Below, piece by piece: positions 1-22,684 of a DNA stretch of 22,684 bases. The position numbers and the translations under genes were made by a program. Each line of letters starts with the position of its first letter. The stretch's first letter is position 1. The stretch covers positions 1 through 22,684 of IMG/VR virus record IMGVR_UViG_2711768076_000014; one strand, written 5' to 3'. The DNA is from a virus. Taxonomy: Duplodnaviria; Heunggongvirae; Uroviricota; Caudoviricetes. A model generated the notes under the pieces. That model made no database searches and had not been told where the DNA came from. It worked only from the letters and a program-made list of their open reading frames with translations.

Positions 1-981
1 ATGAACGCAATAATATCGCCCGATTATTACTATGTTCTTACCGTTGCTGGTCAGTCTAATGCCATGGCGTATGGCGAAGGACTGCCATTACCGGACAGGG
101 AAGATGCGCCTCATCCCAGAATTAAACAATTAGCGAGATTTGCGCATACGCATCCCGGAGGCCCGTCATGTCACTTTAACGACATTATTCCACTGACTCA
201 CTGCCCACACGATGTTCAGGATATGCAGGGTTATCACCATCCTCTGGCAACGAATCATCAAACACAGTACGGCACCGTTGGCCAGGCACTGCATATTGCA
301 CGGAAATTACTACCCTTTATTCCTGATAATGCAGGGGTTCTCATCGTTCCATGTTGCCGTGGCGGATCGGCTTTTACCGCGGGCAGCGAAGGGACATATT
401 CAGAACGGCACGGAGCCAGCCATGATGCTTGTCGTTGGGGAACGGATACTCCGCTGTACCAGGATTTAGTCAGCAGAACGCGAGCCGCACTGGCAAAAAA
501 TCCGCAGAACAAATTCCTCGGCGTATGCTGGATGCAAGGCGAATTTGACTTAATGACCAGTGACTACGCGTCACACCCTCAACACTTTAATCATATGGTT
601 GAAGCCTTTCGTAGGGATCTAAAACAATACCATTCTCAGCTTAATAATATTACTGACGCACCGTGGTTTTGCGGCGATACCACCTGGTACTGGAAAGAAA
701 ATTTCCCTCATGCGTATGAAGTTATTTATGGCAATTATCAAAATAATGTTTTAGCCAATATTATTTTCGTCTACTTCCAGCAACAAGGTGAAAGAGGACT
801 GACGAACGCGCCTGATGAAGATCCGGACGATTTAAGCACGGGATATTACGGTTCAGCGTACCGGTCACCGGAGAACTGGACGACGGCACTGCGAAGCAGT
901 CATTTCAACACGGCAGCCCGTCGGGGGATTATTTCTGACAGGTTTGTAGAAGCAATTTTGCAGTTTTGGCGCGAAAAGTGA
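1..981 (+). CDS. nanS: Sialate O-acetylesterase (SGNH-type), NanS/YjhS-like, 326 aa
   Basis: Full ORF with ATG at position 1; N-terminal GQSNAMAYGEG resembles the SGNH/GDS catalytic serine block; sequence matches my recollection of E. coli YjhS/NanS (326 aa). Likely conserved chromosomal flank. Confidence 0.75.
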   Translation: MNAIISPDYYYVLTVAGQSNAMAYGEGLPLPDREDAPHPRIKQLARFAHTHPGGPSCHFNDIIPLTHCPHDVQDMQGYHHPLATNHQTQYGTVGQALHIARKLLPFIPDNAGVLIVPCCRGGSAFTAGSEGTYSERHGASHDACRWGTDTPLYQDLVSRTRAALAKNPQNKFLGVCWMQGEFDLMTSDYASHPQHFNHMVEAFRRDLKQYHSQLNNITDAPWFCGDTTWYWKENFPHAYEVIYGNYQNNVLANIIFVYFQQQGERGLTNAPDEDPDDLSTGYYGSAYRSPENWTTALRSSHFNTAARRGIISDRFVEAILQFWREK

Positions 982-988
982 GCGTTCA

Positions 989-1639
989 TTAATTTGATTT
1001 ATTCGCATCCATCAACGCTTTTAACTCCTCCGGCGTAAACGGTGGTTTGCGTCGGTGCAGCATCGCATGGCAATTAGGGCACACAGGAAGCAAATCATTA
1101 ACTGGATCCAGCTGGTAATCCTCTTTAATGGCTGAAAGCGGCACCAGGTGATGCACATGGATAAAGCCTTCAGCGATATCACCATAGATCTTCACCAGAT
1201 CAACGCCGCATACGTTGCATTGGCATCCATGATGTTCGACCGCTTTATCTCGGGCCTTTTTATCGCGTTCATAGCGGTTTACTGTCACCTTTATCGCCGC
1301 ACCTTCAACGTAGGTCCCCTGCGACGGCAGCTCATCCGGGAACAGAACGTCGGCTATGGGAGCCGCAGCGGCTTTATCCTGATGAATATGAAATCCCTGC
1401 TCTATGAGTAGCTTGACACATTTAGATTTTATTCCGCCGGTGAAATCCGCAGGGGTAAATTGCGTCCCCGTCATCAATGTCGCTGCGATGCCAGCAATCG
1501 CCTTCGAGGGATAACGTCGGCCATGATATTCAATTTCATACAACCGTGCAGGCTGGAACTGATGAGTTTCTCCCGCATCCCATAAATGAATAGCTTCGAT
1601 GATATACCGCCGCGGAAGATGATCGGGGAGTTTATTCAT
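989..1639 (-). CDS. McrA-like HNH endonuclease with an unassigned N-terminal domain (putative modification-dependent restriction enzyme), 216 aa
   Basis: C-terminal CQCNVCG...HVHHLVPLS...PVCPNCHAMLH resembles the EcoKMcrA HNH/zinc-finger core as I recall it; SD-like AAGGA upstream of ATG; stop lies 7 bp from the nanS stop (convergent). Confidence 0.6.
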   Translation of the reverse strand: MNKLPDHLPRRYIIEAIHLWDAGETHQFQPARLYEIEYHGRRYPSKAIAGIAATLMTGTQFTPADFTGGIKSKCVKLLIEQGFHIHQDKAAAAPIADVLFPDELPSQGTYVEGAAIKVTVNRYERDKKARDKAVEHHGCQCNVCGVDLVKIYGDIAEGFIHVHHLVPLSAIKEDYQLDPVNDLLPVCPNCHAMLHRRKPPFTPEELKALMDANKSN

Positions 1640-1718
1640 AGAGAATGTCCTTATACGTTCTCAGAACAAGCAGCAAAAAAACAAATGAGATCAAAGTAAT
1701 ATATCTTCACTTGCAGGC

Positions 1719-1952
1719 TTGAACAGCAGAAAATTTGCGAGCATGATCGCAATTATTTCACTGCCAGGGATATCAATGGCTTCCAGTAAATCGCTACAGC
1801 AGGCAATTGCCAATATAAAAATCTGGCATAAGGGTGAACAGCGCGCACCGCATAAACCATTGTTATTGCTATACGTATTAGCGGGATACCTGAATGGACA
1901 TCCACGCCTTTTCGATTATTGTAGTGGAACAGTCTACGAGGATGCAGTTTGA
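1719..1952 (+). CDS. Hypothetical small protein (77 aa), possible gene remnant
   Basis: ORF only, in the 640-bp gap between the HNH gene start and abiEii stop; no clear SD; coding status uncertain. Confidence 0.15.
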   Translation: MNSRKFASMIAIISLPGISMASSKSLQQAIANIKIWHKGEQRAPHKPLLLLYVLAGYLNGHPRLFDYCSGTVYEDAV

Positions 1953-2282: not shown

Positions 2283-3188
2283 TTAAGCCTCATCCCATGT
2301 GATCTTTCGCTCTCCATACACCATTGGCGAAACAAACTGCTGATAGCGCATCTCGTAGAGAGGATTGTTCGCCAACTCATCCAGTCCCATTTTTAGCTCA
2401 TCAACTGGAGACGCGCAAAACTGCGGGTACTGGTTGCCGTAACGCTGAATGTCCTGCTCAATAGTTTGTTGAACAAAATCAACGAGCAGACTCATATCAA
2501 CATGACTCGTCTCAACAATACAGTTTGTATCGTAGATATGACGTACCAGCGATGCATCATCAAATCGCTCAACATCTCGCACAACTGCCGCAGTACGACG
2601 TAACATCGCCACCAGCTTTTCTGCCTGTGTGCTAATGATAGTTGCGCATGGAAACGCTGAAACAATAGCCGCTTTTCCCGTGATCCCTGTTACCAGTGAA
2701 TGAATATCCCGTAATTCAGAAGGCTCCAGTAACTTCGCTTCCATCAATTCCAGCCGGATAAAAGGACGCAAACAAGGTGCCTGCACTACTCGCTGTGGAT
2801 AACGAACAGGTATGTCATTATAACGATATTCATCCCGCGTCACTTTTGGGTAATCATCATCAAAATTGAACACACCCGATGAAGCTATTGCACTGGAAAC
2901 TGCCTGAACAATTTCTTTACGGGTATTTTTTCGCTGAGTGCGGGAAAGTGCCTGAAATGCATCCTTAGGCACCAGTTTGATATCCACATCTTCCGACATG
3001 CGATTAAGTGCGACACCTGATTTTGCCAGAGCGGTTCCTCCGGCAAACACCAATTGATGAGTATCGAACACCAGAGGTTTAAGCAATTGCAAAAGCTCAA
3101 CGATATAGTGATCTTTTTCCACAATTGCGACAGACTCAATACCAAGCGCGTCAGCCACTTCAGAAAAAAGAGTGGTTAAATCATCCAT
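2283..3188 (-). CDS. AbiEii/AbiGii-family nucleotidyltransferase toxin (type IV TA / abortive infection), 301 aa
   Basis: N-terminal FAGGTALAKSG...RMSEDVDI fits the GS...D.D nucleotidyltransferase motif of the AbiEii/DUF1814 family; start overlaps the upstream wHTH gene stop by 8 bp. Confidence 0.7.
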   Translation of the reverse strand: MDDLTTLFSEVADALGIESVAIVEKDHYIVELLQLLKPLVFDTHQLVFAGGTALAKSGVALNRMSEDVDIKLVPKDAFQALSRTQRKNTRKEIVQAVSSAIASSGVFNFDDDYPKVTRDEYRYNDIPVRYPQRVVQAPCLRPFIRLELMEAKLLEPSELRDIHSLVTGITGKAAIVSAFPCATIISTQAEKLVAMLRRTAAVVRDVERFDDASLVRHIYDTNCIVETSHVDMSLLVDFVQQTIEQDIQRYGNQYPQFCASPVDELKMGLDELANNPLYEMRYQQFVSPMVYGERKITWDEA

Positions 3189-3576
3189 TTAATCTGCTGT
3201 TCCCTACAGATAATACGCGTTTAAAACGCCGGGGGGTTTTTATCTCGGGTGAAGCTGGGATCTGCGTAGAAGTACCGCTATTGTATGCCTGCGTTGCGCC
3301 AGCAAAACGATAGCGTACTTTCAGGCGTTCCAGCGTTTCGACAATCACCGCTGAAGAGCCTCCGGGAGCCGCTGGCATTACCTTGCCTGTAATACCGTTC
3401 CGCCGTGCTTTGGTATACACGCCATAACCAACCTTCAACAGTTGCCCTTCCCTGACAAGCTCGCGCAATACCCGACCAACCTGATCGTAGCCTGCAATAT
3501 CTTTAAAGTCGTCACGAGTGAATACGTAACGTTTAGAACGTTTCAGTCGTGACTGAATGCGTGCTTTTATCGTCAT
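3181..3576 (-). CDS. AbiEi-like antitoxin / winged-HTH transcriptional regulator (about 131 aa from the ATG with SD)
   Basis: MTIKARIQSRLKRSKRYVFTRDDF...VGRVLRELVREGQLLKVGYGVY resembles the AbiEi N-terminal wHTH; GGAGG sits 5 nt before the ATG ending at 3576; the six-frame ORF extends to 3645 but the upstream in-frame ATGs lack an SD. Confidence 0.6.
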   Translation of the reverse strand: MTIKARIQSRLKRSKRYVFTRDDFKDIAGYDQVGRVLRELVREGQLLKVGYGVYTKARRNGITGKVMPAAPGGSSAVIVETLERLKVRYRFAGATQAYNSGTSTQIPASPEIKTPRRFKRVLSVGNSRLNG

Positions 3577-3603
3577 ATTCGCCTCCAGAGTCATTGCATA
3601 AAG

Positions 3604-3646
3604 AGTAGCAAAAATACGACATTTTAGATAGCAAACATACGACATT
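3604..3646 (-). promoter_or_regulatory. Two tandem 20-bp direct repeats (period 23 bp) upstream of abiEi; putative operator/promoter
   Basis: Plus-strand agtagcaaaaatacgacatt (3604-3623) and gatagcaaacatacgacatt (3627-3646) match at 18 of 20 positions, immediately upstream of the SD-supported abiEi start. Confidence 0.4.
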
Positions 3647-4479
3647 CATTTTGCTGATAACGCTGACGGAAAGTGCTTCGCCACGATATCATTCATCTTA
3701 TCCACCAGATCCAGTCGCTTGAAAGTGATATGCCCACTGCCTTTCTGGTAATAGCGGATGACAAATAAATCGTCATCAAATACCTGTTCATGCGGGTGAG
3801 CACTAACGAAGTCCATAAACCGAATCGCAACATCATGCCGGTTATCGGGAATGGCCTTCCCATCCAGCAGATAGAACATACGCTCCAGATCGGCAAGCTG
3901 ATCTCGCCGCCAGCCCCAGTTCAGGCTGTAGCCCCATCTGTCATGCTTCACCAGATTGTTAACGATAATCTTCTTACCGAAATAACAGGGATTATTGGTT
4001 TTGTAGTCCCAGCTCAATCCCTTAAATACATTGATAACCCCACGTTCGAAAACGTCCTGCTTATTGTGGTGAAGTTGTTCAAAGGTACTCAGAATGTTGG
4101 CTTCGCTAATCGCCGGGAGATCGCCCTCTTCCAGGTTCTTTGCCCACTGACTGCGGGCTTCGGCATCCATCAGAGTCAACATCCCAGACTTCAGCATGAG
4201 ATCGCGCCAGATGCTGCGATCGATATTTCGGGTGATCACCGGCATCGCTTTGTCGGTTGGCTGCATCAGCCAGCAGTCAAAGGCATATCCATTTCGCATT
4301 GCCCAGGTTCCAGCCACATCACCGCCAATACTGGATGTCAGGCTGGAGATATCATCAAGTTTTTGGATTAACGCCGCTATCTGGTTCAGTGCACTATCAC
4401 GTCCTGTGACGATACGCTCGATACTGGTCGAGCAAATTAGTTCGTTATGATCGGTTAAGACTTCAGCTTCTGTCTGCAT
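3646..4479 (-). CDS. Hypothetical protein, 277 aa, no family assignable
   Basis: Long ORF filling the space between the hsdM divergent promoter region and the abiE operator; no catalytic motif recognised. Confidence 0.6.
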   Translation of the reverse strand: MQTEAEVLTDHNELICSTSIERIVTGRDSALNQIAALIQKLDDISSLTSSIGGDVAGTWAMRNGYAFDCWLMQPTDKAMPVITRNIDRSIWRDLMLKSGMLTLMDAEARSQWAKNLEEGDLPAISEANILSTFEQLHHNKQDVFERGVINVFKGLSWDYKTNNPCYFGKKIIVNNLVKHDRWGYSLNWGWRRDQLADLERMFYLLDGKAIPDNRHDVAIRFMDFVSAHPHEQVFDDDLFVIRYYQKGSGHITFKRLDLVDKMNDIVAKHFPSALSAK

Positions 4480-4784
4480 AATCTTTCATCCGTAAAAAAT
4501 ACACTCGCCGTTAGTAGCAGACGAATTATCCACTGGTGAAAGATTGGGTAAATAATGAGATTGAAAATCGGGAAGGTGACTCGCAATAAATTATCTGATC
4601 ACCTACGGATGGGCGATGGGCATATAAAGTAGCCTCCTGACTCAAGCGGTGAATGCTGAGTAAGATGCACTAACAATCTGGTACTGAATCCCCTCCTCAC
4701 CGTCATACAAATCTGAAAAACCAAACAACTTCCGGTAAAATCCCGGCAAAAGCCGACGTTAAAAACACATTCAAAGGATAAAAA

Positions 4785-6337
4785 ATGACCAGTCTTCAGC
4801 AGCGCGCGGAGCTTCATCGCCAAATCTGGCAAATTGCTAACGATGTCAGAGGTTCGGTCGATGGATGGGATTTTAAGCAATACGTTCTGGGCGCGCTTTT
4901 CTACCGTTTTATCAGCGAAAATTTTTCCAGCTATATTGAAGCCGGTGATGACAGTATCTGTTATGCGAAACTGGATGACAGCGTAATTACTGATGACATT
5001 AAAGACGATGCCATCAAAACTAAAGGCTACTTCATCTACCCCAGTCAGCTTTTCTGCAACGTAGCTGCGAAAGCAAATACTAATGACAGACTGAATGCAG
5101 ATTTAAACAGCATCTTCGTTGCTATCGAAAGTTCTGCTTACGGTTATCCTTCAGAAGCTGACATCAAAGGTTTGTTTGCTGATTTCGATACCACCAGTAA
5201 CCGCCTGGGTAACACCGTTAAAGATAAAAATGCCCGCCTGGCTGCGGTTCTGAAAGGGGTTGAAGGGTTAAAACTTGGTGACTTCAACGAACATCAGATT
5301 GACCTGTTCGGTGATGCCTATGAGTTCCTGATTTCTAACTATGCGGCAAATGCCGGTAAGTCAGGCGGTGAGTTCTTTACACCGCAGCACGTCTCCAAGC
5401 TGATTGCACAACTGGCTATGCACGGGCAGACCCACGTTAACAAAATCTACGACCCGGCAGCGGGTTCCGGCTCACTGTTGTTGCAGGCGAAAAAACAGTT
5501 TGATAACCATATCATCGAAGAAGGCTTTTTCGGTCAGGAAATCAACCATACGACCTATAACCTGGCGCGTATGAACATGTTTTTGCACAACATCAACTAC
5601 GACAAGTTTGATATCAAGCTTGGCAATACGCTGACTGAACCGCACTTCAGAGATGAAAAACCGTTTGATGCCATCGTTTCTAACCCGCCGTATTCGGTGA
5701 AATGGATTGGCAGCGATGACCCGACGCTGATTAACGATGAGCGTTTTGCCCCGGCTGGCGTTCTGGCCCCCAAATCCAAAGCTGACTTTGCGTTTGTATT
5801 ACATGCGCTGAACTATCTTTCGGCCAAAGGTCGTGCTGCGATTGTCTGCTTCCCGGGTATTTTTTACCGTGGCGGCGCAGAGCAGAAAATCCGTCAGTAT
5901 CTGGTCGATAATAACTATGTCGAAACCGTAATTTCACTGGCTCCGAACCTGTTCTTTGGCACCACCATTGCCGTAAACATTCTGGTTCTGTCCAAACATA
6001 AAACGGATACCAACGTTCAGTTTATTGATGCCAGCGAACTGTTCAAAAAAGAGACCAACAACAATATCCTGACCGATGCCCATATCGAACAAATTATGCA
6101 GGTATTCACCAGCAAGGAAGATGTTGCTCATCTGGCAAAATCTGTCGCGTTTGAAGCCGTTGTAGCGAATGACTATAACCTGTCGGTGAGCAGCTATGTA
6201 GAATCGAAAGATAACCGCGAAATTATCGATATTGCTGAGCTGAATGCAGAACTGAAAACTACGGTCAGCAAAATCGACCAGTTGCGTAAAGATATCGACT
6301 CAATTGTGGCAGAGATTGAAGGTGACGAGGTGCAGGG

Positions 6338-6341
<4 letters not shown>
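4785..6341 (+). CDS. hsdM: Type I restriction-modification N6-adenine DNA methyltransferase subunit HsdM, 518 aa
   Basis: SAM-binding [10 protein letters not shown] and catalytic NPPY ([12 protein letters not shown]); N-terminal HsdM-type domain; 4-bp ATGA overlap with hsdS. Confidence 0.9.
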
Positions 6342-7543
<1,202 letters not shown>

Positions 7544-7665
7544 TTGACCATTGCTACCGATCGGGCCACCTTAACACCCGGTCAGTATATAGACTATTTT
7601 TTTACGCGCCGGAAGTCACTCTTAACGCCCTTCCGGCTCTTGCCAGGCGGCACAAAGGATGCGCT

Positions 7666-10600
7666 ATGACTCATCAAACACACACCATTGCTGAATCCAA
7701 TAACTTTATCGTCCTTGATAAGTACATCAAAGCTGAGCAAACAAGCGACAGCTACCAGAGCGAATCGGACCTGGAACGTGAACTGATTCAGGACCTGCGG
7801 AATCAGGGTTATGAATTTATTTCGGTAAAATCACAGTCAGCGATGCAGGCCAACGTTCGGGAACAGCTTCAGAGCCTCAATGGTGTGGTGTTTAATGACA
7901 GCGAGTGGCGGCGTTTCACGGAGCAGTATCTGGATAACCCGAGCGATGGCATTCTGGATAAGACCCGTAAAATCCATATCGACTATATTTGCGACTTTAT
8001 TTTTGATGACGAGCGTCTTGAGAACATCTATTTGATAGATAAAAAGAATCTCATGCGCAATAAGGTGCAGATTATCCAGCAGTTTGAGCAGGCGGGTTCT
8101 CATGCTAACCGTTATGACGTCACGATCCTGGTTAATGGCTTACCACTGGTACAAATCGAACTGAAAAAGCGCGGCGTGGCGATTCGTGAGGCTTTCAACC
8201 AGATACATCGTTACAGTAAAGAGAGTTTTAACAGCGAAAATTCCCTGTTTAAGTATCTGCAACTGTTTGTCATTTCTAACGGCACCGATACCCGTTACTT
8301 TGCCAACACCACAAAGCGCGATAAAAACAGTTTTGACTTCACCATGAACTGGGCGAAATCAGACAACACGCTGATTAAAGACCTCAAAGATTTTACCGCT
8401 ACCTTTTTCCAGAAACATACTCTGCTTAATGTTCTGGTGAACTACAGCGTGTTCGATATTAGCCAGACGCTACTGGTGATGCGACCGTACCAGATTGCCG
8501 CTACCGAACGGATCTTATGGAAAATCAACAGTTCCTATAAAGCGAAAAACTGGTCTAACCCCGAAAGCGGTGGCTTTATCTGGCACACTACCGGTTCCGG
8601 TAAAACACTGACCAGCTTTAAAGCCGCGCGCCTGGCAACAGAACTGGACTTTATTGATAAAGTCTTCTTTGTGGTCGACAGGAAAGACCTCGATTACCAG
8701 ACGATGAAGGAATATCAGCGTTTTTCCCCAGACAGCGTCAACGGCTCGGAAAATACCGCAGGCCTTAAACGAAATCTGGATAAGGACGATAACAAAATTA
8801 TCGTCACCACTATTCAGAAACTTAATAACCTGATGAAAGCAGAAAGCGACCTGCCTGTATACAATCAGCAAGTGGTGTTTATATTTGATGAATGTCACCG
8901 CAGCCAGTTTGGAGAAGCGCAGAAAAATCTGAAGAAGAAATTCAAACGCTATTATCAGTTTGGTTTTACCGGCACACCTATTTTCCCGGAAAACGCTTTA
9001 GGCTCAGAAACGACCGCCAGCGTATTTGGTCGTGAATTGCATTCATATGTGATTACCGATGCGATTCGTGATGAAAAAGTGCTCAAATTCAAGGTGGACT
9101 ATAACGATGTGCGGCCCCAGTTTAAATCTTTAGAGACAGAAACCGACGAGAAAAAACTGAGTGCGGCTGAAAATCAGCAGGCGTTTCTTCATCCCATGCG
9201 TATACAGGAAATTACGCAATATATTCTGAATAACTTCCGCCAGAAGACCCACCGTACTTTCCCAGGTTCCAAAGGCTTTAATGCCATGCTGGCAGTGAGT
9301 AGCGTGGATGCCGCGAAAGCCTATTACGCGACGTTTAAACGGTTACAAGAGGAAGCAGCTAATAAATCGGCTACCTATAAACCGCTGCGTGTTGCGACAA
9401 TCTTCTCCTTTGCCGCCAATGAAGAACAAAATGCCATTGGTGAAATTTCCGATGAAACTTTTGATACCAGCGCAATGGACAGCAGTGCTAAAGAGTTTCT
9501 TGACGCTGCAATTCGTGAGTATAACAGCTATTTTAAAACTAACTTCAGCACCGACAGTAACGGTTTTCAGAACTACTATCGTGATTTAGCCCAACGGGTT
9601 AAAAATCAGGATATCGATCTGTTAATTGTCGTTGGGATGTTTTTAACCGGCTTCGACGCTCCAACATTGAACACGCTATTCGTCGATAAAAACTTGCGTT
9701 TTCACGGCCTGATGCAGGCATTCTCCCGCACCAACCGCATTTATAACGCCACTAAAACCTTCGGTAACATCGTCACTTTCCGGGATCTGGAACGCTCAAC
9801 CATTGATGCCATAACGCTGTTTGGTGATAAAAATACCAAAAATGTAGTGTTAGAAAAGAGTTATGCAGAGTATATGGAAGGCTTTACTGATGCTGCCACT
9901 GGTGAAGCTAAACGCGGCTTTATGGCAGTAGTTTCAGAACTGGAACAACGGTTCCCTGACCCTGCCAGTATTGAAAGTGAAAAAGAGAAGAAAGACTTCG
10001 TTAAACTGTTTGGTGAATACCTGCGTGCCGAGAACATCCTGCAAAACTATGATGAATTTGCCACGCTGAAAGCCCTGCAACAAATCGATCTTAGCGATCC
10101 TGTTGCGGTAGAAAAATTCAAAGAAGAACATTATGTGGATGATGAAAAGTTCGCTGAATTACAAACGATTCGTCTCCCTGCTGAACGCAAGATTCAGGAT
10201 TATCGTTCTGCCTATAACGATATTCGTGACTGGCAGCGCCGCGAGAAAGAGGCTGGCAAAAAAGAAAAGTTAACTACTGACTGGGATGACGTGGTTTTTG
10301 AAATCGATTTGCTGAAGTCTCAGGAAATAAACCTGGATTATATCCTTGGACTGATTTTCGAACACAACAGACAAAACAAAGGTAAGGGCGAAATGACCGA
10401 AGAGGTCAAGCGCTTAATTCGTTCGAGCCTTGGGAACCGTGCCAAAGAAGGTCTGGTGGTCGATTTTATTCAACAAACAAACCTGGATGATTTGCCGGAT
10501 AAAGCCAGCATCATTGACGCGTTTTTTACCTTTGCTCAACGCGAACAGCAACGTGAAGCAGAAGCATTGATCAAAGAAGAAAATCTCAATGAAGAGGCGG

Positions 10601-10782
10601 CGAAACGCTATATTCGCACGTCTTTAAAACGCGAATACGCCACCGAAAATGGCACGGAATTAAACGAGACATTGCCAAAACTCAGTCCGTTAAATCCGCA
10701 ATATAAGACGAAAAAACAGACGGTTTTCCAGAAGATCGTCGCGTTTATTGAGAAGTTTAAAGGTGTAGGCGGGCAGATATAA
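7666..10782 (+). CDS. hsdR: Type I R-M restriction subunit HsdR (helicase-nuclease), 1038 aa, EcoR124-like
   Basis: Endonuclease-type D...ELK block ([20 protein letters not shown]), Walker A TGSGKT, DECH box ([10 protein letters not shown]); length and N-terminus [20 protein letters not shown] match my recollection of EcoR124I HsdR; separated from hsdS by 122 bp, suggesting its own promoter. Confidence 0.9.
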
Positions 10783-11262: not shown

Positions 11263-12210
11263 TTAAATTTCATATTTTGAAATTTCGCTGATTACATCAT
11301 CCCCATATTTCTTAATCATGGAGGCAAAGAATTTATGTTCAATAAATTTCGCATAGCCTAATTCTCCTTTAAGGGTTAGAATTTCTTTCTCAGATAAAAC
11401 CCCACACACATAATAATGTATTTTACTTCTTAAAAGACGCTTTCTATCACGACCTAAAGACAAATAACCATCAGTCGTAATAGTTACACCAGTTACATGT
11501 CTATTAAACTTCCTTGAGGTAAAAACTGTTTTCTCATGGTTTATTTTAATATTCCTAAGATTTACTACGTTAAGAACTTCCCTTACTAACTTAGGAACAT
11601 CAAATAAAGCTCCTTTGACTTTGGTGCTAAACGTAAGATCATCAGCATACCTTGAGTAGGTAATACCCAAATCCTTGCATCTTTTCGATATTTCCTCATC
11701 GAAGAAATACATTACTGTATTTGAAATAATGGGAGAAGAAGGTGCTCCAACACTTAGGCGTAACGGGCTATTTCTTCTTAACTTCCAGAAGAAAAGATTT
11801 TTAAGAACAAAGATATCAGTATCAGTTAGTTCAACGCCATAATCTTTTAAGACAGATAAAAGATTATGGGGTTTGATACTCATAAAAAAGTTTTTAAAAT
11901 CCATTTTAAGCAAATAATCATTATTACAATGCATTAACGCATTAGATCTAATACTTTTATCGGCTTCATAAGCGAAAGCATTTTCATGAACTTTCAAATT
12001 AGCCAACATATGATTGATTACTACCTTCTGTAAGGCTTTAACTTGCCTAGCTGGTTGTGCAATTAATCTATATCCATTACCATTTCTTTTGGCGATAGGA
12101 TAAATTTTATATCTGCGTGGAATAGTAACAATATACCTTTTAGCCTCTTCTTCGCTAAGAAAAAGACCTTTTGAAATATAACTTAGCAACTCCATTCTAA
12201 GCCCCTCCAC
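11263..12210 (-). CDS. Retron-type reverse transcriptase, 315 aa
   Basis: RT blocks YRLIAQPARQVKALQKVV, LKMDFKNFFMSI, SVGAPSSPIISN, YSRYADDLTFS (YADD catalytic box) and VTGVTIT (retron VTG signature); size as for Ec73/Ec86-class retron RTs. Confidence 0.85.
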   Translation of the reverse strand: MEGLRMELLSYISKGLFLSEEEAKRYIVTIPRRYKIYPIAKRNGNGYRLIAQPARQVKALQKVVINHMLANLKVHENAFAYEADKSIRSNALMHCNNDYLLKMDFKNFFMSIKPHNLLSVLKDYGVELTDTDIFVLKNLFFWKLRRNSPLRLSVGAPSSPIISNTVMYFFDEEISKRCKDLGITYSRYADDLTFSTKVKGALFDVPKLVREVLNVVNLRNIKINHEKTVFTSRKFNRHVTGVTITTDGYLSLGRDRKRLLRSKIHYYVCGVLSEKEILTLKGELGYAKFIEHKFFASMIKKYGDDVISEISKYEI

Positions 12211-13183
12211 GCACGATATTGATTTGATTTAGAGCATTTTTCCTTTTTTTTGCAGTCTCGTCCATATCTTTAGCATCCATACTTAAGTAAGATTGTCGGA
12301 TTGCAACCTTAATATTCATAGAATCCTTTATTTTACCACTAGCACTGATACCAAATTTAAGTTTACTCTCTCTATGCCCTCGGGAATAGAAGTAGTCTGT
12401 ACCACTGTAAGATAATGATGAGGTTAATTTCATCTTTTCAAGCAAATAAAGTAAACGAGTTATTATTTTTTGTGGCACATCTATATCCATACAGTATAGT
12501 GCCCACTCTATTTCGCTTTTCTTGATTGGTTCTGATAAAAGGATTATTTCGTAAATCAATATAGCTAGGTGCCCAGTATTTTCAGGGTTATATCGCTCCG
12601 TTTTTTTTACACGTTTTAATCTAGAATGAATATCATGGTAGATAAGCTCAACCTCATCATATTTCATACGATCCGATTTTGGCCATGGATAAACTGATAC
12701 TGAGGCCTCATCTATTTTTTTAAGATACTCCAAAGGGCCTAAATATATAAAAGAAGATCTAGCAGGAATATTTTTTCGTTCATTTCCCTCAATCTCCTCA
12801 AATGGTGCGACTACATGCAATTTTTGAGCTAGAGACTTCCTATTAACAAATAATCCAAGCTCAACTAACGAACCTGCACTTTCTAAACAGATAACAACTA
12901 ATGTTGAAATATTTGCAATATCATCTTCAAAGCTCATTAGATCTGAATATGCCCCCTCTCTGAAGTAGTCATGGAAGTTCTCAGCTAAAATAAGAGAATC
13001 TGACAATTCAGGTTTGTGGCCTGCTACATAAGTAAATATGTGGTCTCGTACACTCATTGGAGTGGAATTTATCGGCCCACCACAAACAAAAATAATAGGA
13101 GGCATGAACTGAACAGTGAAATTTGAATATTTCAAATCTCCAAACTGCTCTTGTAATGCATTCATATATGCAGAATCACTCAC
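12197..13183 (-). CDS. Retron accessory/effector protein (type II-like, possibly nucleoside deoxyribosyltransferase-like plus DNA-binding), 328 aa
   Basis: Lies between the msd hairpin and the RT gene and overlaps the RT start by 14 bp; AT-rich like the RT gene; family assigned by context only. Start is GTG at 13183 or ATG at 13165. Confidence 0.6.
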   Translation of the reverse strand: MSDSAYMNALQEQFGDLKYSNFTVQFMPPIIFVCGGPINSTPMSVRDHIFTYVAGHKPELSDSLILAENFHDYFREGAYSDLMSFEDDIANISTLVVICLESAGSLVELGLFVNRKSLAQKLHVVAPFEEIEGNERKNIPARSSFIYLGPLEYLKKIDEASVSVYPWPKSDRMKYDEVELIYHDIHSRLKRVKKTERYNPENTGHLAILIYEIILLSEPIKKSEIEWALYCMDIDVPQKIITRLLYLLEKMKLTSSLSYSGTDYFYSRGHRESKLKFGISASGKIKDSMNIKVAIRQSYLSMDAKDMDETAKKRKNALNQINIVRGGA

Positions 13184-14088: not shown

Positions 14089-14640
14089 TCACTCCTGTAT
14101 ATCGTTAATGTCATTCAGGCGTTGCTGAAAACGCAGATGTTGTGCCGGGGTGTAAGAACCCTGGCAATCACGAATCATCCCGGGGTCAGGCATCAAACCG
14201 GATTCATCCAGGATCTCACGATAATCCCCGGCAATTTCAGGCGGTGTTATTGCCAGCTGGCGAACCAGAGCACTGCGTAATATACGGGACGCAACGTCAA
14301 CCCCTCCGCGCCCCTTCAGGAACGGAGCCAGTGCAGATGTCAGGGCTGCCCCATTCGCCTGCATAAAATTGCTGAGAGCGGCTTCTGTGCAGGCCTCCAT
14401 CAGTAAATGCTGCGAGTAAATGCATTCGCGCGCAGCACAGTTAATTTGCCATTTCAGCACATCCAGACGTTCCCGCAGTAATTCGAGCTGTCGGGCATAA
14501 TCTGCTGGTTTTTCTGTGGCAGCGAGGAGAGATGTTATCTGTTGTTCAACGGCTTTTCGGCTCTCATTATGTCCGGCCCACAGAATACGGGCATTCCGAA
14601 AACTGGTAAGTGCCTGGTCAGGCGTGCCTCGGGCCGTCAT
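14089..14640 (-). CDS. psu: Psu-like polarity-suppression / capsid-decoration protein, 183 aa
   Basis: Blocks LKWQINCAAR, FMQANGAALTSALAPFL and YTPAQHL resemble my recollection of P4 Psu (190 aa); ATGA overlap with the upstream gene. Confidence 0.55.
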   Translation of the reverse strand: MTARGTPDQALTSFRNARILWAGHNESRKAVEQQITSLLAATEKPADYARQLELLRERLDVLKWQINCAARECIYSQHLLMEACTEAALSNFMQANGAALTSALAPFLKGRGGVDVASRILRSALVRQLAITPPEIAGDYREILDESGLMPDPGMIRDCQGSYTPAQHLRFQQRLNDINDIQE

Positions 14641-15380
14641 ACTGCTTTCTCCTTCTCAGCAAGTTCCTGACGAACCTTAATTTTATGCATAGCTGCCGGA
14701 GAGAGTTGATTACTGAAATCCAGACGCGCCGCATAATCCGGGGCAACTCCCGCCAGTTTAAACACCGGGTCCTGCTCAGGCATCGCATCGTTAGCCAGAG
14801 CCGGTCTGGTGATATGTTTATGAATAAAGTCTTTCAGCACTGTGTCCGGGTCATTAACTGAATTCACCACACCCACAACGGCACTGGCTTCCCGGCCCAT
14901 TGTGGATTTAAGCAGGCTCAGCGTCTGAATAAGCGCTTTTCCATGCGACTGCATAAAATCCTCCCAGATTTGTTTTGCGCGAATATCCACAAGAATGTTA
15001 TGCGCGTGGATATACTTTCCGGCTAATTCTGCAGCTTTCTGCGGCAAAAGTGCATTTTCGCTTTCCTGAGCCGCCAGCAGCTCATCAAAATCCTCAAGCG
15101 TTTCTCGTCCCAGCGCAATTTCCGTGCGCAGTTTTTTCATTTCCTTTGAGACCACGCCCTGACTTTCACGAAACAGCGTGCGCCACTCCTCATTCAGTGT
15201 GTTCGTCGTGGCTTCCATTTCAGCGCGACGCTGGCGGATTGTCGCAATATTATCCGCTGCCGCTTTCTGCTGACGACGTGCTTCAAGCCATGCGTTTCTG
15301 GCTGTGTTCATGGTTTCCAGTGCCCGCTGCGTTACAGCCGGAAAAGTGGAAAGGTTGTTATTCACTGCGGTGTTGTTCAT
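14637..15380 (-). CDS. Sid-like external scaffold (capsid size determination) protein, 247 aa, tentative
   Basis: Size close to P4 Sid (244 aa), Ala/Glu/Arg-rich helical character, first gene of the operon with Psu and Ogr/Delta, preceded by AGGAG and TGT-N12-ACA dyads; no direct motif match recalled. Confidence 0.4.
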   Translation of the reverse strand: MNNTAVNNNLSTFPAVTQRALETMNTARNAWLEARRQQKAAADNIATIRQRRAEMEATTNTLNEEWRTLFRESQGVVSKEMKKLRTEIALGRETLEDFDELLAAQESENALLPQKAAELAGKYIHAHNILVDIRAKQIWEDFMQSHGKALIQTLSLLKSTMGREASAVVGVVNSVNDPDTVLKDFIHKHITRPALANDAMPEQDPVFKLAGVAPDYAARLDFSNQLSPAAMHKIKVRQELAEKEKAV

Positions 15381-15780: not shown

Positions 15781-18453
15781 TTAACCCGGCACCTCGCTGT
15801 TGAAGACATAGAGCCTGCGGGGATTCATCTCTGGCGGGCGAATGGTTGTCTGGAGTTTGCCATCAGTGGAGGGCAGCAGGTATCCACGATCTGCGCACAG
15901 ACGCGCCACCTTGCGCGGGTCAAATCCCCTGCAGATTTCTTTCCAGCCGGACGGCATGACATAGAACGTAGTGACAGCTTCCGTGCCCTGCGCGGTACTG
16001 CCTTTCTCCACCCTGCGCCAGCCCACCATATTGCCGGGGCGGTTGCGCTCGTCATACCAGTCTGCAAAGCGGCTGTACTGATTCGCGGTAAAGAAACTGC
16101 GAACCTGCTCCAGTGCGGCGATATCTTCCTGATTGGCGGTGTGCCCGCGATCTTTCAGCCATGCGTTCAGGCAGACGCGGGTTGCCCGCAGTGCTTCACC
16201 CTCAGGCCAGCCGGTGATACCCAGACGGGTTGCCAGTTCACCTGCCATCGCCACCAGAGCAAAGCGGTTCACAGCCCGGCCCACCTGATTGCCTGCATCT
16301 TTCGGAGTCAGGGCGGCAGCATATTCCTTCATCAGCGATTTTGCCTGTGCCGTTAGTCCGTTAAGATCAGCGGTCAGTGCTTTCAGCCACTCCCGGAACG
16401 GCGAACCGTAGTAGCAGGACGTGGCCCATTCAAGATGCTCTGCCAGAGCCTTGCCGCTGTCGAAGCCGTGCAGCTCCTCAAAAACGCCAAACTTCCCGGA
16501 ATCGCTGGGGATCTGGATCATCCTGACTTCCATCCCGGCAAAAGTACGCTCACCGGCCTTTGCCGCATGTTCGGTCAGAGACAACTCGCCAGTTGAAAAG
16601 AACAACAGGCGCCAATGCTTACGGGTACGCAGCTCACCGTCCGTACCGGCACGGCCCTTGCCCTGACCGTTTGCCAGCATGTAGGCGATATTGCCTGCCT
16701 CGCGTCCGTCAACTTCCCGGATCTCATCAAGCATCATGGCGGCATCGTTGCGGCGGCTGGCGCATCCCTCCAGCGCGTTGCCGGTGGCCCGCCATGTCTG
16801 CCAGTAGTCAGGCCCGCCGCAGACGGAGGTTGCCGCTTTCATGGTGGTGGTCTTACCGTCTGTCGATTCCCCTTTGAGGTGGTAGCCGCCGCCGTCCATA
16901 CCAACCAGCCGTAACAGTGGTGCAGCAAAGGCCAGGCTGACAGCAAATGCCACGCGGGAGTTGCCGGTACAGTAGCGGGATACATGCTCCCGCCATTCCT
17001 CTGTTGTGCCCGACACGCGGAAATCACGCCCCTGCACGGAAGTGGTCTGGAGAATGACACCCTCTGCACCTTCACCGCTGACCTCATCCTGCAGGACGTA
17101 AACCTGACCATGCCAGCCAGTACGACTGACGCAGGTCACGCGGCGTTCCGGTTTACACAGTGAGATATATTCCATCAGGCGTGCGCGTGCCTCACCGGTG
17201 GTGCTGATATAAGACAGCCCGTTAACCAGCAATACCCGGCGCAGTTCCTCACCACTGCCGCTCAGCATTTCCATCGGCATCGCCCAGCGGCGACACTCAC
17301 CCCACGTATCTTCCCATTCCAGCAGTCGTCCGAAGTTACCGCCATCGGCATCGCAGGTGATTGCCGTCACGCGCAGCGGGCTGCATATTTTGACGTTCTG
17401 GATCTCCGTCTCACCGTTGCGCTGTACCTGCTTTTCATACCAGAGATATTCCTGGGTAAGACGGAACCCGTGCGGCAGTTGCGTGCGGCCCTCCCCGCAC
17501 AGCACCAGACCGTTACGAAAGGCTTCACGGGCGCGGGTAATACCGTGCTCCCGATGGAAGTCATTCCAGTCGGCCTTAATCTCTCCCGGTGGCAGCGTCA
17601 TCCAGCCGCCAACAGCTTTTGCCGCCCGTTCAGCAAAGGCTCTGCCGGGATTCTCACCCCCGTCCTGAAAATCGTTATCACCGGCGATGATAATTTTTAC
17701 CTCAGGCCAGCGTGCCCGCAGCGACTGCGCCACATTGGGCAGGTTGCCCGCAGATATGGCAGCCACTACGCATCCGGCAGTGAGCTGACTTACCGTCAGC
17801 GCCGTAGCGTAACCTTCGGTAATCACCACCTGTACCGGTGGTTCAGACGGTAACGGGCTGAGCGACACAAACGCGCCTTTCATCGTGCTGCCGGGCAGTA
17901 TGCTTTTTTCACCCGTCGGGGCGATAAGCTGTGCACCAGTCACGGCTCCGGTGTTGGTCGTGAGTGGTAACAGCAGGGAACCGGCAGGAAAATCCTTACC
18001 GCTGATATGCTGCACGCTTCCGGTCAGAGAGGCCGGGTATCCGGCGAACCCTTTTCCTGTCAGATAGGCGCTTTCTCCCGTGTGGCTCTCTTTCATCAGC
18101 GCCGCCACGGTAAGACCCATGTCGCGTTTAGGGGCTTTTTTTCTGGCAGGCTTAACAGGCAGTTCCTGCACATCCGGCACATTAAGCACCTGCGCCACCT
18201 CCTGCGCAGCCTTTCTGACGCTGTAACCGGTTACGAGCTTAACCAGATCCAGACCGTCACCATTGCCACACTGGCTGCAGATCCACGTCCCGCGCCCGTC
18301 AAGGTCATCAAGGCGAAAACGATCCTTGCCCCCACATTTCGGGCAGGGACCGTGCCTGCCGTTTTCAGGTACATCAATACGCAGCATCTGGAGAATAACG
18401 GGCCATTTCCCCCGTGCGGCGGCTGAAATCTGCGTAACCGTCTGTATTGTCAT
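15781..18453 (-). CDS. Phage/plasmid primase-helicase (P4 alpha-like), 890 aa
   Basis: N-terminal zinc-binding CPKCGGKDRF...CSQCGNGDG, Toprim-like IIAGDNDFQDGGENPG, P-loop GESTDGKTT; largest ORF of the element. Confidence 0.85.
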   Translation of the reverse strand: MTIQTVTQISAAARGKWPVILQMLRIDVPENGRHGPCPKCGGKDRFRLDDLDGRGTWICSQCGNGDGLDLVKLVTGYSVRKAAQEVAQVLNVPDVQELPVKPARKKAPKRDMGLTVAALMKESHTGESAYLTGKGFAGYPASLTGSVQHISGKDFPAGSLLLPLTTNTGAVTGAQLIAPTGEKSILPGSTMKGAFVSLSPLPSEPPVQVVITEGYATALTVSQLTAGCVVAAISAGNLPNVAQSLRARWPEVKIIIAGDNDFQDGGENPGRAFAERAAKAVGGWMTLPPGEIKADWNDFHREHGITRAREAFRNGLVLCGEGRTQLPHGFRLTQEYLWYEKQVQRNGETEIQNVKICSPLRVTAITCDADGGNFGRLLEWEDTWGECRRWAMPMEMLSGSGEELRRVLLVNGLSYISTTGEARARLMEYISLCKPERRVTCVSRTGWHGQVYVLQDEVSGEGAEGVILQTTSVQGRDFRVSGTTEEWREHVSRYCTGNSRVAFAVSLAFAAPLLRLVGMDGGGYHLKGESTDGKTTTMKAATSVCGGPDYWQTWRATGNALEGCASRRNDAAMMLDEIREVDGREAGNIAYMLANGQGKGRAGTDGELRTRKHWRLLFFSTGELSLTEHAAKAGERTFAGMEVRMIQIPSDSGKFGVFEELHGFDSGKALAEHLEWATSCYYGSPFREWLKALTADLNGLTAQAKSLMKEYAAALTPKDAGNQVGRAVNRFALVAMAGELATRLGITGWPEGEALRATRVCLNAWLKDRGHTANQEDIAALEQVRSFFTANQYSRFADWYDERNRPGNMVGWRRVEKGSTAQGTEAVTTFYVMPSGWKEICRGFDPRKVARLCADRGYLLPSTDGKLQTTIRPPEMNPRRLYVFNSEVPG

Positions 18454-21421: not shown

Positions 21422-22684
21422 TTATTTTCCATGCATACGCGCAAAATCATATGGTGTGACAGATCCATTCTTATTAGCATCAATATAATCAGCCCACCAC
21501 TGCAGCATTAATCTTCTTTCTTCAAGATATTCGGAAGTATGCATATATGAACCTTTCACATTTTTTCGTTCAACGTGGCTTAACTGTCTTTCAATGGCAT
21601 CATCATTCCATAGTTTCGACTCACTTAGCGCACCACGCGCCATAGTTCTAAACCCATGACCACATACTTCAGTTTTCGTATCATATCCCATTACACGTAA
21701 GGCGTTATTTACTGTATTTTCACTCATTACTTTTTTAGGATCATGATCGCTGGGAAATATAACCTCACCTTTACCACTCAAGGCATGTAAACGTTTAAAA
21801 ATATCAAATGCTTGTTTGCTAAGCGGAACAATATGTTCAGTTTTCATCTTCATCCCACGCTCAGAGTGTTTTACGCCGGGAATAGGCTTACGAATTCCGG
21901 GTATTGTCCACTCGCTTCGTTCAAAGTTAACCTCACTCCAGCGAGCAAAACGCATCTCACTTGAACGTATAAATGTGAGTAGCGTTAATTCAACGGCAAG
22001 CCGTGTCATTAGTCGCCCTTTATAGCGTGATAGTCTTTCAAGAAGCTCAGGGATTCTTTTTGGGGGTAGTGCTGGGTGGTGGGTTGCTTTAACGCTTAAA
22101 AGCGCTCCAGCCATATCGCATGCAGGATTTGATTCAAGGAGGTCATTCTGCACACCAAAACGCATAATTGCGGTTACGCGCTGCATCAGTCGCTGCGCGA
22201 CATCATGTTTACCCGCCGTATCGACAGCTTTGATTGGATTGAGAAGCTGGCTGGTTCTCAACGTTCTGGCATCGATTTGACCTATCGAGGGGAAAATATA
22301 CTGCTCAAGTGTCAGCAGAACACGACGGCTATGATCTTCGCTCCAAGTAAGGTTACTTGCGTGCCATTGCCTTGCGATAGTTTCAAATAAATATGCCCCC
22401 TCAATTTCAGCTTGTGCCCCCTTTTGCTCAGCTTTGGGGTCAATACCCTGAGACAACAATTTCTTTGCTGCATCGCGCTTACCCCGCGCTTCAGCCAAAG
22501 TGACCGTCGGGTATACACCAAAAGCGAGTCGATCTTCCTTTTTGTCAGAGGGGCGGCGATATTTCATGCGCCAGTACTTAGAACCTTTAGGGGAGACCTC
22601 AAGATACAAACCGCCTCCATCAGCCATTTTATAAGCTTTCTCTTTCGGCTTTGCGGTCTCTATCTGGCGAGCGTTGAGTTTCAT
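21422..22684 (-). CDS. int: P4-type tyrosine integrase, 420 aa
   Basis: N-terminal MKLNARQIETAKPKEKAYKMADGGGLYLEVSPKGSKYWRMKYR is the P4-integrase arm-binding signature; C-terminal catalytic region with HGFRTMARG and a downstream Tyr; start codon at the window edge, tRNA presumably just beyond. Confidence 0.9.
   Translation of the reverse strand: MKLNARQIETAKPKEKAYKMADGGGLYLEVSPKGSKYWRMKYRRPSDKKEDRLAFGVYPTVTLAEARGKRDAAKKLLSQGIDPKAEQKGAQAEIEGAYLFETIARQWHASNLTWSEDHSRRVLLTLEQYIFPSIGQIDARTLRTSQLLNPIKAVDTAGKHDVAQRLMQRVTAIMRFGVQNDLLESNPACDMAGALLSVKATHHPALPPKRIPELLERLSRYKGRLMTRLAVELTLLTFIRSSEMRFARWSEVNFERSEWTIPGIRKPIPGVKHSERGMKMKTEHIVPLSKQAFDIFKRLHALSGKGEVIFPSDHDPKKVMSENTVNNALRVMGYDTKTEVCGHGFRTMARGALSESKLWNDDAIERQLSHVERKNVKGSYMHTSEYLEERRLMLQWWADYIDANKNGSVTPYDFARMHGK

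Follow-up and report, generated by a model that had tools for sequence, protein, structure and literature searches.

The window (the whole 22,684-nt stretch analyzed here) carries, in order, nanS, a gene for a two-domain protein that we call head-HNH, the stump of an SBD-HNH gene (SBD, sulfur-binding domain), an AbiEii/AbiEi pair, a DUF4942 gene, hsdMSR, a type II-A retron within a P4-like satellite, and an integrase (Table 1). The window is a defense island, with dense defense gene content between nanS and the P4-like element (2283–10782). In a strain with an identical head-HNH gene, the island integrase adjoins a tRNA-Leu gene. The head-HNH gene occupies the distal end of the ∼22-kb island that reaches to the P4-type integrase, in agreement with the preliminary description, which had placed it at the island edge and 7 bp from the nanS stop; the two stop codons (nanS TGA at 979–981, head-HNH TAA at 989–991) indeed leave 7 nt between them. 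A scan of this spacer for a terminator-like site returned none.

The encoded protein, which begins MNKLPDHLPRRYIIEAIHLWDAG..., corresponds to WP_001037970.1 and is publicly annotated as 'HNH endonuclease'. It is 100% identical in E. coli AMSHJX01 and other strains, and the exact 216-aa protein is already present on more than 1000 public contigs. With 7084 database relatives and a dN/dS of 0.11 between the window allele and another E. coli allele, WP_001037966.1 (only 18 nucleotide differences), the gene is real and not a chance open reading frame. The window allele is under purifying selection; in the same comparison the head domain alone had a dN/dS of 0.06, with only one nonsynonymous change.

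Divergent from the head-HNH gene lies a pseudogene stump that matches positions 1–50 of an HMM made from intact SBDs (E = 3e-23) and that PGAP labels 'phosphorothioated DNA-binding restriction endonuclease, incomplete'. These matches identify it as the decayed gene of an EcoWI-like phosphorothioate-dependent nuclease, which the preliminary description had overlooked; enzymes of the EcoWI SBD-HNH type restrict phosphorothioate (PT)-modified DNA (PMC7461809). The same stump occurs in E. coli strains (loci L001, L095, and L096) with entirely different island cargo beyond it, and K-12 retains another SBD fragment, covering positions 32–79. Scans of 850–2300 for promoters, terminators, and repeats gave nothing above chance apart from an 18-nt palindrome, TTGCGAGCATGATCGCAA, in the divergent intergenic region. 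The palindrome, disrupted in K-12, is preserved nearly base for base in Klebsiella aerogenes amid diverged flanks. It may serve the SBD-HNH/head-HNH pair as an operator or a 5′-UTR hairpin.

Table 1. Features of the window and their positions
Feature	Position	Strand	Details
nanS (sialate O-acetylesterase)	1..981	+	Open reading frame; PGAP annotation of the same locus; chromosomal flank of the island
Spacer nanS/head-HNH	982..988		7 nt separating convergent stop codons; from sequence; too short for a terminator
Head-HNH gene	989..1639	-	Complete, 216 aa, ATG start; open reading frame list
McrA-like beta-beta-alpha-Me HNH nuclease with CxxC...CxxC zinc finger	992..1279	-	aa 121-216; Pfam, 6ghc alignment, Foldseek, invariant residues
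Key HNH codons	C141 1217-1219; C144 1208-1210; H164 1148-1150; C187 1079-1081; C190 1070-1072	-
Acidic linker	1280..1369	-	aa 91-120; modeled as disordered; near-invariant P101, E103, E112, G113 ('FPDE...EG')
ScoMcrA_N 'head' domain, PF26345	1370..1639	-	aa 1-90; predicted topology alpha-beta-beta-alpha-alpha-beta
Clade-specific head codons	aa 31 1547-1549; aa 35 1535-1537; aa 45 1505-1507	-
YthB (K-12)	1625-1639 + 979-985		8598-8696 of K-12 MG1655 (L002)
Divergent intergenic region	1640..1775		Expression signals of the head-HNH gene; holds the palindrome
Palindrome	1735-1752		18 nt
SBD-HNH 5′ remnant	1776..1925	+	About 50 codons, HKPLLLL motif; within open reading frame 1719-1952; pseudogene
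AbiEii/AbiEi toxin–antitoxin pair	2283-3645
DUF4942 protein	3646-4479
Type I R-M hsdM-hsdS-hsdR	4785-10782		Complete, separate unit
Retron type II-A	11263-13183	-	Reverse transcriptase 315 aa and NDT effector 328 aa; cargo position of the P4-like satellite
P4-like satellite	psu homologs 14089-15380; primase 15781-18453; integrase 21422-22684

Two domains joined by an acidic linker

A McrA-like zinc-finger/HNH core had been proposed for the C-terminal half, and three approaches agree on it. Pfam HNH (PF01844) covers residues 141–197 (22.9 bits against a cutoff of 21.4), residues 123–198 align with residues 199–269 of EcoKMcrA (6ghc; E = 4.5e-4, phmmer against the PDB), and a Foldseek search with the full model gave 6ghc_A as the best match (probability 0.99). 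In an alignment of 50 full-length homologs, all 31 invariant columns are kept by the window protein, among them the zinc ligands C141, C144, C187, and C190 together with H163, H164, H191, and H195. The zinc ligands and the catalytic histidines are also invariant across 77 homologs of the HNH module.

The full AlphaFold model (pLDDT 84) is confident for residues 1–90 and 121–216 and drops below a pLDDT of 50 at residues 92–120. HNH proteins with other N-domains, unrelated to the head, share the 'FPDE...EG' leader within this stretch, a conserved part of the nuclease module (approximately residues 100–216) that AlphaFold leaves unstructured. The N-domain, given as ∼110 residues in the preliminary description, is shorter, with about 90 residues before the low-confidence linker.

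That N-domain belongs to a family known from ScoMcrA of Streptomyces coelicolor. Residues 24–87 match residues 29–93 of the ScoMcrA structure 5zmm (E = 2.9e-5, phmmer against the PDB), a profile made from 29 diverse copies of the domain matches residues 3–94 (E = 3.3e-8), and homologs in a large protein collection bear the precomputed Pfam assignment PF26345, ScoMcrA_N. Local Pfam, NCBIfam, PADLOC, and PHROG scans returned nothing for the N-domain, with a local Pfam copy that is older than PF26345; PADLOC gave partial matches to mREase_IV models only, and has no model for the whole head-HNH protein. Neither SRA nor EVE was matched by the window protein in the Pfam scan. The EcoKMcrA N-domain has no counterpart in the window protein, either by sequence (phmmer against the PDB) or by fold, which bears out the suspicion that the N-domain differs from that of McrA. 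The idea of a different 'reader' domain thus stood in part: the domain is distinct, yet it is already catalogued as PF26345, and 'reader' is a label to be inferred, since the sole structural paper describes the ScoMcrA head as small, flexibly attached, and of unknown function (PMC6224610).

A sulfur-binding domain was suspected at first because Y43-P-S-K-A47 resembles the Y164-P165-x-x-A168 sulfur cavity of the ScoMcrA SBD. This candidate is ruled out. The PDB match falls on residues 29–93 of ScoMcrA, which are head and not SBD; true SBDs read HKPLLLL...MPFWRL, unlike the head domain; and hhalign of the head profile against SBD, a comparison that the preliminary description had called for, gave a probability of 0.3%.

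Modeled alone, the N-domain reaches a pLDDT of 89 and a pTM of 0.81, with helices at residues 10–22, 45–57, and 73–80 and strands at 34–38, 41–44, and 84–87. The fold shows only weak resemblances to winged-helix and helix–turn–helix (HTH) DNA binders and is not PUA-like. Conserved residues are H26, F28, Y34, Y43-P-S-K46-A47, D65, F66, G68, and G69. The domain is mildly basic (net charge +2, pI ∼8.8; the wider-family median pI is 6.7), and its conserved residues look more like a pocket than a clamp, which is suggestive only. Near-invariant S31, D35, and P45 of the wider head family are replaced by A31, E35, and S45 in the enterobacterial clade of the window protein. These replacements may reflect a shift of ligand specificity inside the family.

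With PF26345 at the N terminus and a zinc-finger HNH at the C terminus, the window protein is by sequence a clear member of a two-domain ScoMcrA_N + HNH family (∼210 aa; range ∼205–230 aa) that occurs in Proteobacteria and other groups and is catalogued and uncharacterized. Literature searches with the accession numbers, PF26345, and the ScoMcrA head domain found no characterization of, or experiment on, head-HNH proteins.

Modular reuse and distribution of the gene

We scanned the family alignment against one genome per species and obtained 80 loci. In 75 cases the match was confined to the C-terminal half (46%–62% identity), behind unrelated N-terminal regions of 90–390 residues. Few of the N-domains among HNH-module proteins are recognized by Pfam: EVE, Mrr_N, DUF3427, DUF4268, and DUF6009. 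The domain swap suggested in the preliminary description is therefore well founded, with one HNH module, including its FPDE...EG leader, joined at 50%–60% identity to many unrelated N-domains. The head, too, is reused. A phmmer search with residues 1–100 against 1.84 billion cluster representatives recovered 609 proteins of many lengths, which puts the head in no fewer than 609 protein clusters (50% identity). In the 79 head proteins longer than 290 aa, the partners were HNH (41), HNH_2 (19), EVE (15), NOV_C (6), McrB-like AAA_5 (4), DUF3427 (4), and SAD_SRA (3), with a few fusions to STAND/AAA-type NTPases and NUDIX among the long proteins. Typical orders are head-EVE-HNH, head-...-EVE-AAA_5 (McrB-like), Mrr_N-head-EVE-AAA_5, and head-DUF3427; the head usually forms the extreme N terminus, before EVE and HNH or AAA_5. 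A rough check with an HMM and motifs showed no SBD in any of the 150 top-scoring head-domain proteins. Through this modular reuse, both halves count among the regular building blocks of type IV restriction. Target recognition in the 216-aa protein has no candidate other than the head, which appears to sit where a type IV-like nuclease has its sensor.

The same partner list leaves room for a different role. Since the head often co-occurs with the true readers EVE and SRA, it may be an accessory module, a general binder of DNA structure or sequence context or a regulatory domain, in which case the nuclease would act independently of modification and be restrained otherwise, for example, because it is weakly expressed, autoinhibited via the FPDE...EG linker, or dependent on particular DNA structures. 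The linker, conserved and yet unstructured, and the weak winged-helix/HTH resemblance would suit such a role, and the SBD and SRA of ScoMcrA already account for the specificities of that enzyme. We nevertheless consider a general module somewhat unlikely, because the head is the only non-catalytic domain in a 210-aa family with no conserved immunity or partner gene nearby, because an unrestrained nuclease would be toxic, and because conserved H26, F28, Y34, Y43, D65, and F66, at a charge of +2, look less like a basic DNA clamp than like a pocket.

A pocket-like set of conserved residues on an orphan fold could also belong to an abortive-infection effector whose head senses a phage protein or small molecule and whose HNH domain then degrades DNA indiscriminately. 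AbiE and retron II-A in the same island, as well as the few fusions to STAND/AAA-type NTPases and NUDIX, would be in keeping with this. It is, however, improbable: the main partners of the head are modification readers and the McrB-type GTPase, a hallmark of type IV systems; the nSTAND3 matches overlap AAA_5 on the same McrB-like P-loop region; and ScoMcrA itself depends on DNA modification (PMC6224610, PMC7461809).

At the K. aerogenes locus (L088), an intact gene for a 289-aa SBD-HNH protein (6952–7821) adjoins the head-HNH ortholog divergently; a Mrr_N-HNH gene comes next and a type I system after that. The locus (6260–8636) thus lines up three small HNH nucleases, with Mrr_N, SBD, and head N-domains, beside a type I R-M system, a trio suggestive of a cassette in which type IV-like enzymes complement one another in their sensors. 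The SBD-HNH and Mrr_N-HNH portion is also present in Enterobacter sp. MGH 24. An E. coli paralog, 59% identical and carried in an ICE, has an intact SBD-HNH gene 4 kb away. An SBD gene lay within 10 kb at three of 11 independent head-HNH loci compared with one of 72 loci with other HNH proteins (Fisher's P = 0.007). An obligatory pairing of head-HNH with SBD-HNH was nonetheless rejected, given eight loci with no SBD neighbor (in Pantoea, Shewanella, Raoultella, Pseudescherichia, Marinobacter, Hylemonella, an Elusimicrobia MAG, and an environmental genome). As the positive loci are all from Enterobacteriaceae and possibly derive from one ancestral cassette, we treat the association as a regional cassette, and because loci that do without an SBD neighbor span many genera, the head-HNH gene is autonomous. 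No conserved partner, methyltransferase, or immunity gene was found across the 11 independent loci, which include those of Pantoea, Shewanella, the environmental genome, Klebsiella, and E. coli. Elsewhere, head-HNH genes lie near SIR2, helicase-PLD, GmrSD_N, and NACHT genes; the head-HNH gene shares the type IV trait of a stand-alone nuclease in defense islands.

The head domain had one marginal match in 50,697 phage records and six in 72,556 plasmid records, no match in BFVD, and PHROG matches were limited to the HNH half. A phage homing or packaging HNH endonuclease is ruled out by the near absence of the head from phage records and BFVD, and head-HNH is a cell-side gene.

Within E. coli, some match to the gene was present in 2734 of 5426 complete genomes, and at least 80% of its length in 1239 (∼23%); several deletion forms of the gene occur. 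Such patchy presence, absence, and inactivation is usual for restriction genes. The common allele WP_001037966.1 differs from the window allele at five residues, one of them C187Y. Position 187, an invariant zinc ligand in the CPNC motif, is Cys in the window. Using allele-specific 41-mers, read via the 28-nt seed requirement of megablast, we counted the Tyr187 haplotype in ∼1317 and the Cys187 haplotype in ∼887 of the 5426 genomes. The Tyr187 allele is predicted to be crippled, although many strains keep its full-length open reading frame. The window allele is intact, with a full-length open reading frame and every invariant residue including C187.

In K-12, ∼640 bp (window ∼986–1625) are cleanly deleted at a CG microhomology, which leaves the first five codons fused to antisense nanS. 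The annotated K-12 small protein YthB (b4802, 32 aa, MNKLPAHLSRQ...) starts at the ATG of the HNH gene and has been detected by epitope tagging (bioRxiv 10.1101/511675). With its reading frame running from the surviving start into antisense nanS, YthB has the look of a deletion by-product; because it is made from the start and upstream signals of the HNH gene, these signals are active in E. coli.

Such erosion could mean that the gene no longer has a function in this strain and is, like the adjoining SBD-HNH stump, a decaying relic. The minority of genomes that keep most of the gene, the K-12 deletion, and the excess of Tyr187 over Cys187 haplotypes are what a relic would leave behind. The window allele itself argues against decay, being full length with all invariant residues and with a low dN/dS (from few differences), as do the many contigs with the identical protein and the use of its translation start in K-12, and we regard a relic as very unlikely.

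Proposed function and comparison with known enzymes

The reading that we favor is a stand-alone, type IV-like defense nuclease whose head chooses the substrate that its McrA-like HNH module cuts. This reading rests on the domain architecture, on zinc and catalytic residues that are all intact, on purifying selection, on homology to the ScoMcrA head, on modular reuse of both halves, and on the defense-island context, and we hold it to be about evenly balanced between right and wrong. Most likely, the head, tethered by the flexible acidic linker, would direct the nuclease to foreign DNA bearing a feature absent from host DNA, and the HNH module would then cut the DNA so selected. DNA binding by the head, its discrimination of a modification, and restriction of phages or plasmids by the protein are what we infer. 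Most E. coli carry both Dam (G6mATC) and Dcm (C5mCWGG) marks; with the intact allele widespread in this species, either mark would be an unlikely target.

A more specific proposal, which we put forward tentatively and with more doubt than confidence, is that ScoMcrA_N is a genuine and previously unrecognized modification sensor with a specificity of its own, distinct from the NEco, SRA, EVE, SBD, and winged-helix readers. That would add the 216-aa protein, so far overlooked, to the type IV restriction enzymes of E. coli, and would also explain the head of ScoMcrA and the N-terminal module found in some enzymes of the McrB-like and EVE-HNH kinds. Its target would have to be missing from E. coli itself; examples are hypermodified phage bases, 7-deazaguanines, 5mC or 4mC in non-Dcm contexts, or phosphorothioate outside EcoWI contexts. 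If the head were only a generic DNA anchor, the finding would amount to routine annotation.

In type IV enzymes, sensor and nuclease modules are exchangeable building blocks, and each new sensor has so far revealed how one class of modified foreign DNA is recognized. Sensors also yield tools for mapping modifications, such as EcoWI-seq (PMC9521924). A crystal structure of the ScoMcrA head has existed since 2018, and in common strains of E. coli, Klebsiella, Pantoea, and Shewanella the head occurs alone with HNH. With nothing else in the protein, the 216-aa enzyme is the simplest system for learning what the head does, with the K-12 deletion and the two natural alleles, Cys187 and Tyr187, at hand as controls.

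The plan of the window protein resembles those of EcoKMcrA, EcoWI, and the EVE-HNH enzymes, yet the N-domain that defines each of them is missing. ScoMcrA (Sco4631, PDB 5ZMM), a PT- and 5mC/5hmC-dependent type IV endonuclease, shares the head but has 561 aa, with an SBD and an SRA domain between head and HNH where the window protein has only a 30-residue linker. Its head departs from the family consensus (YDSKA for YPPKA, and Tyr for H26), and its HNH is only a marginal match to that of the window protein.

The EcoWI/SprMcrA-type SBD-HNH enzymes of Enterobacteria (PMC7461809) are likewise small two-domain proteins that combine a sensor with HNH. Their SBD is all-helical, carries HKPxxLL/PFW motifs, and bears no similarity to the head, and their HNH belongs to the subfamily HNH_2 (PF13391). 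On the window protein, NF045808 (PT-DNA_restrict) scored 15.4 bits against a cutoff of 180, and the HKPxxLL/PFW motifs are absent from it; the pseudogene alongside (1776–1925) has them.

EVE-HNH and SRA-HNH enzymes (VcaM4I, TagI, ScoA3IV; PMC6765204, PMC7897488) follow the same modular logic. Some EVE-HNH proteins have a head before EVE, and EVE occurs in two of 77 proteins with the window-type HNH module; the window protein differs from these enzymes in lacking a PUA-superfamily domain. Among solved HNH modules, the closest is that of EcoKMcrA (PDB 6GHC), the 5mC/5hmC enzyme of the E. coli e14 element. Its NEco reader domain is without a counterpart in the window protein in sequence or fold, whereas the CxxC...HH...CxxCH...H layout and the two-domain plan of an N-domain plus HNH are common to both.
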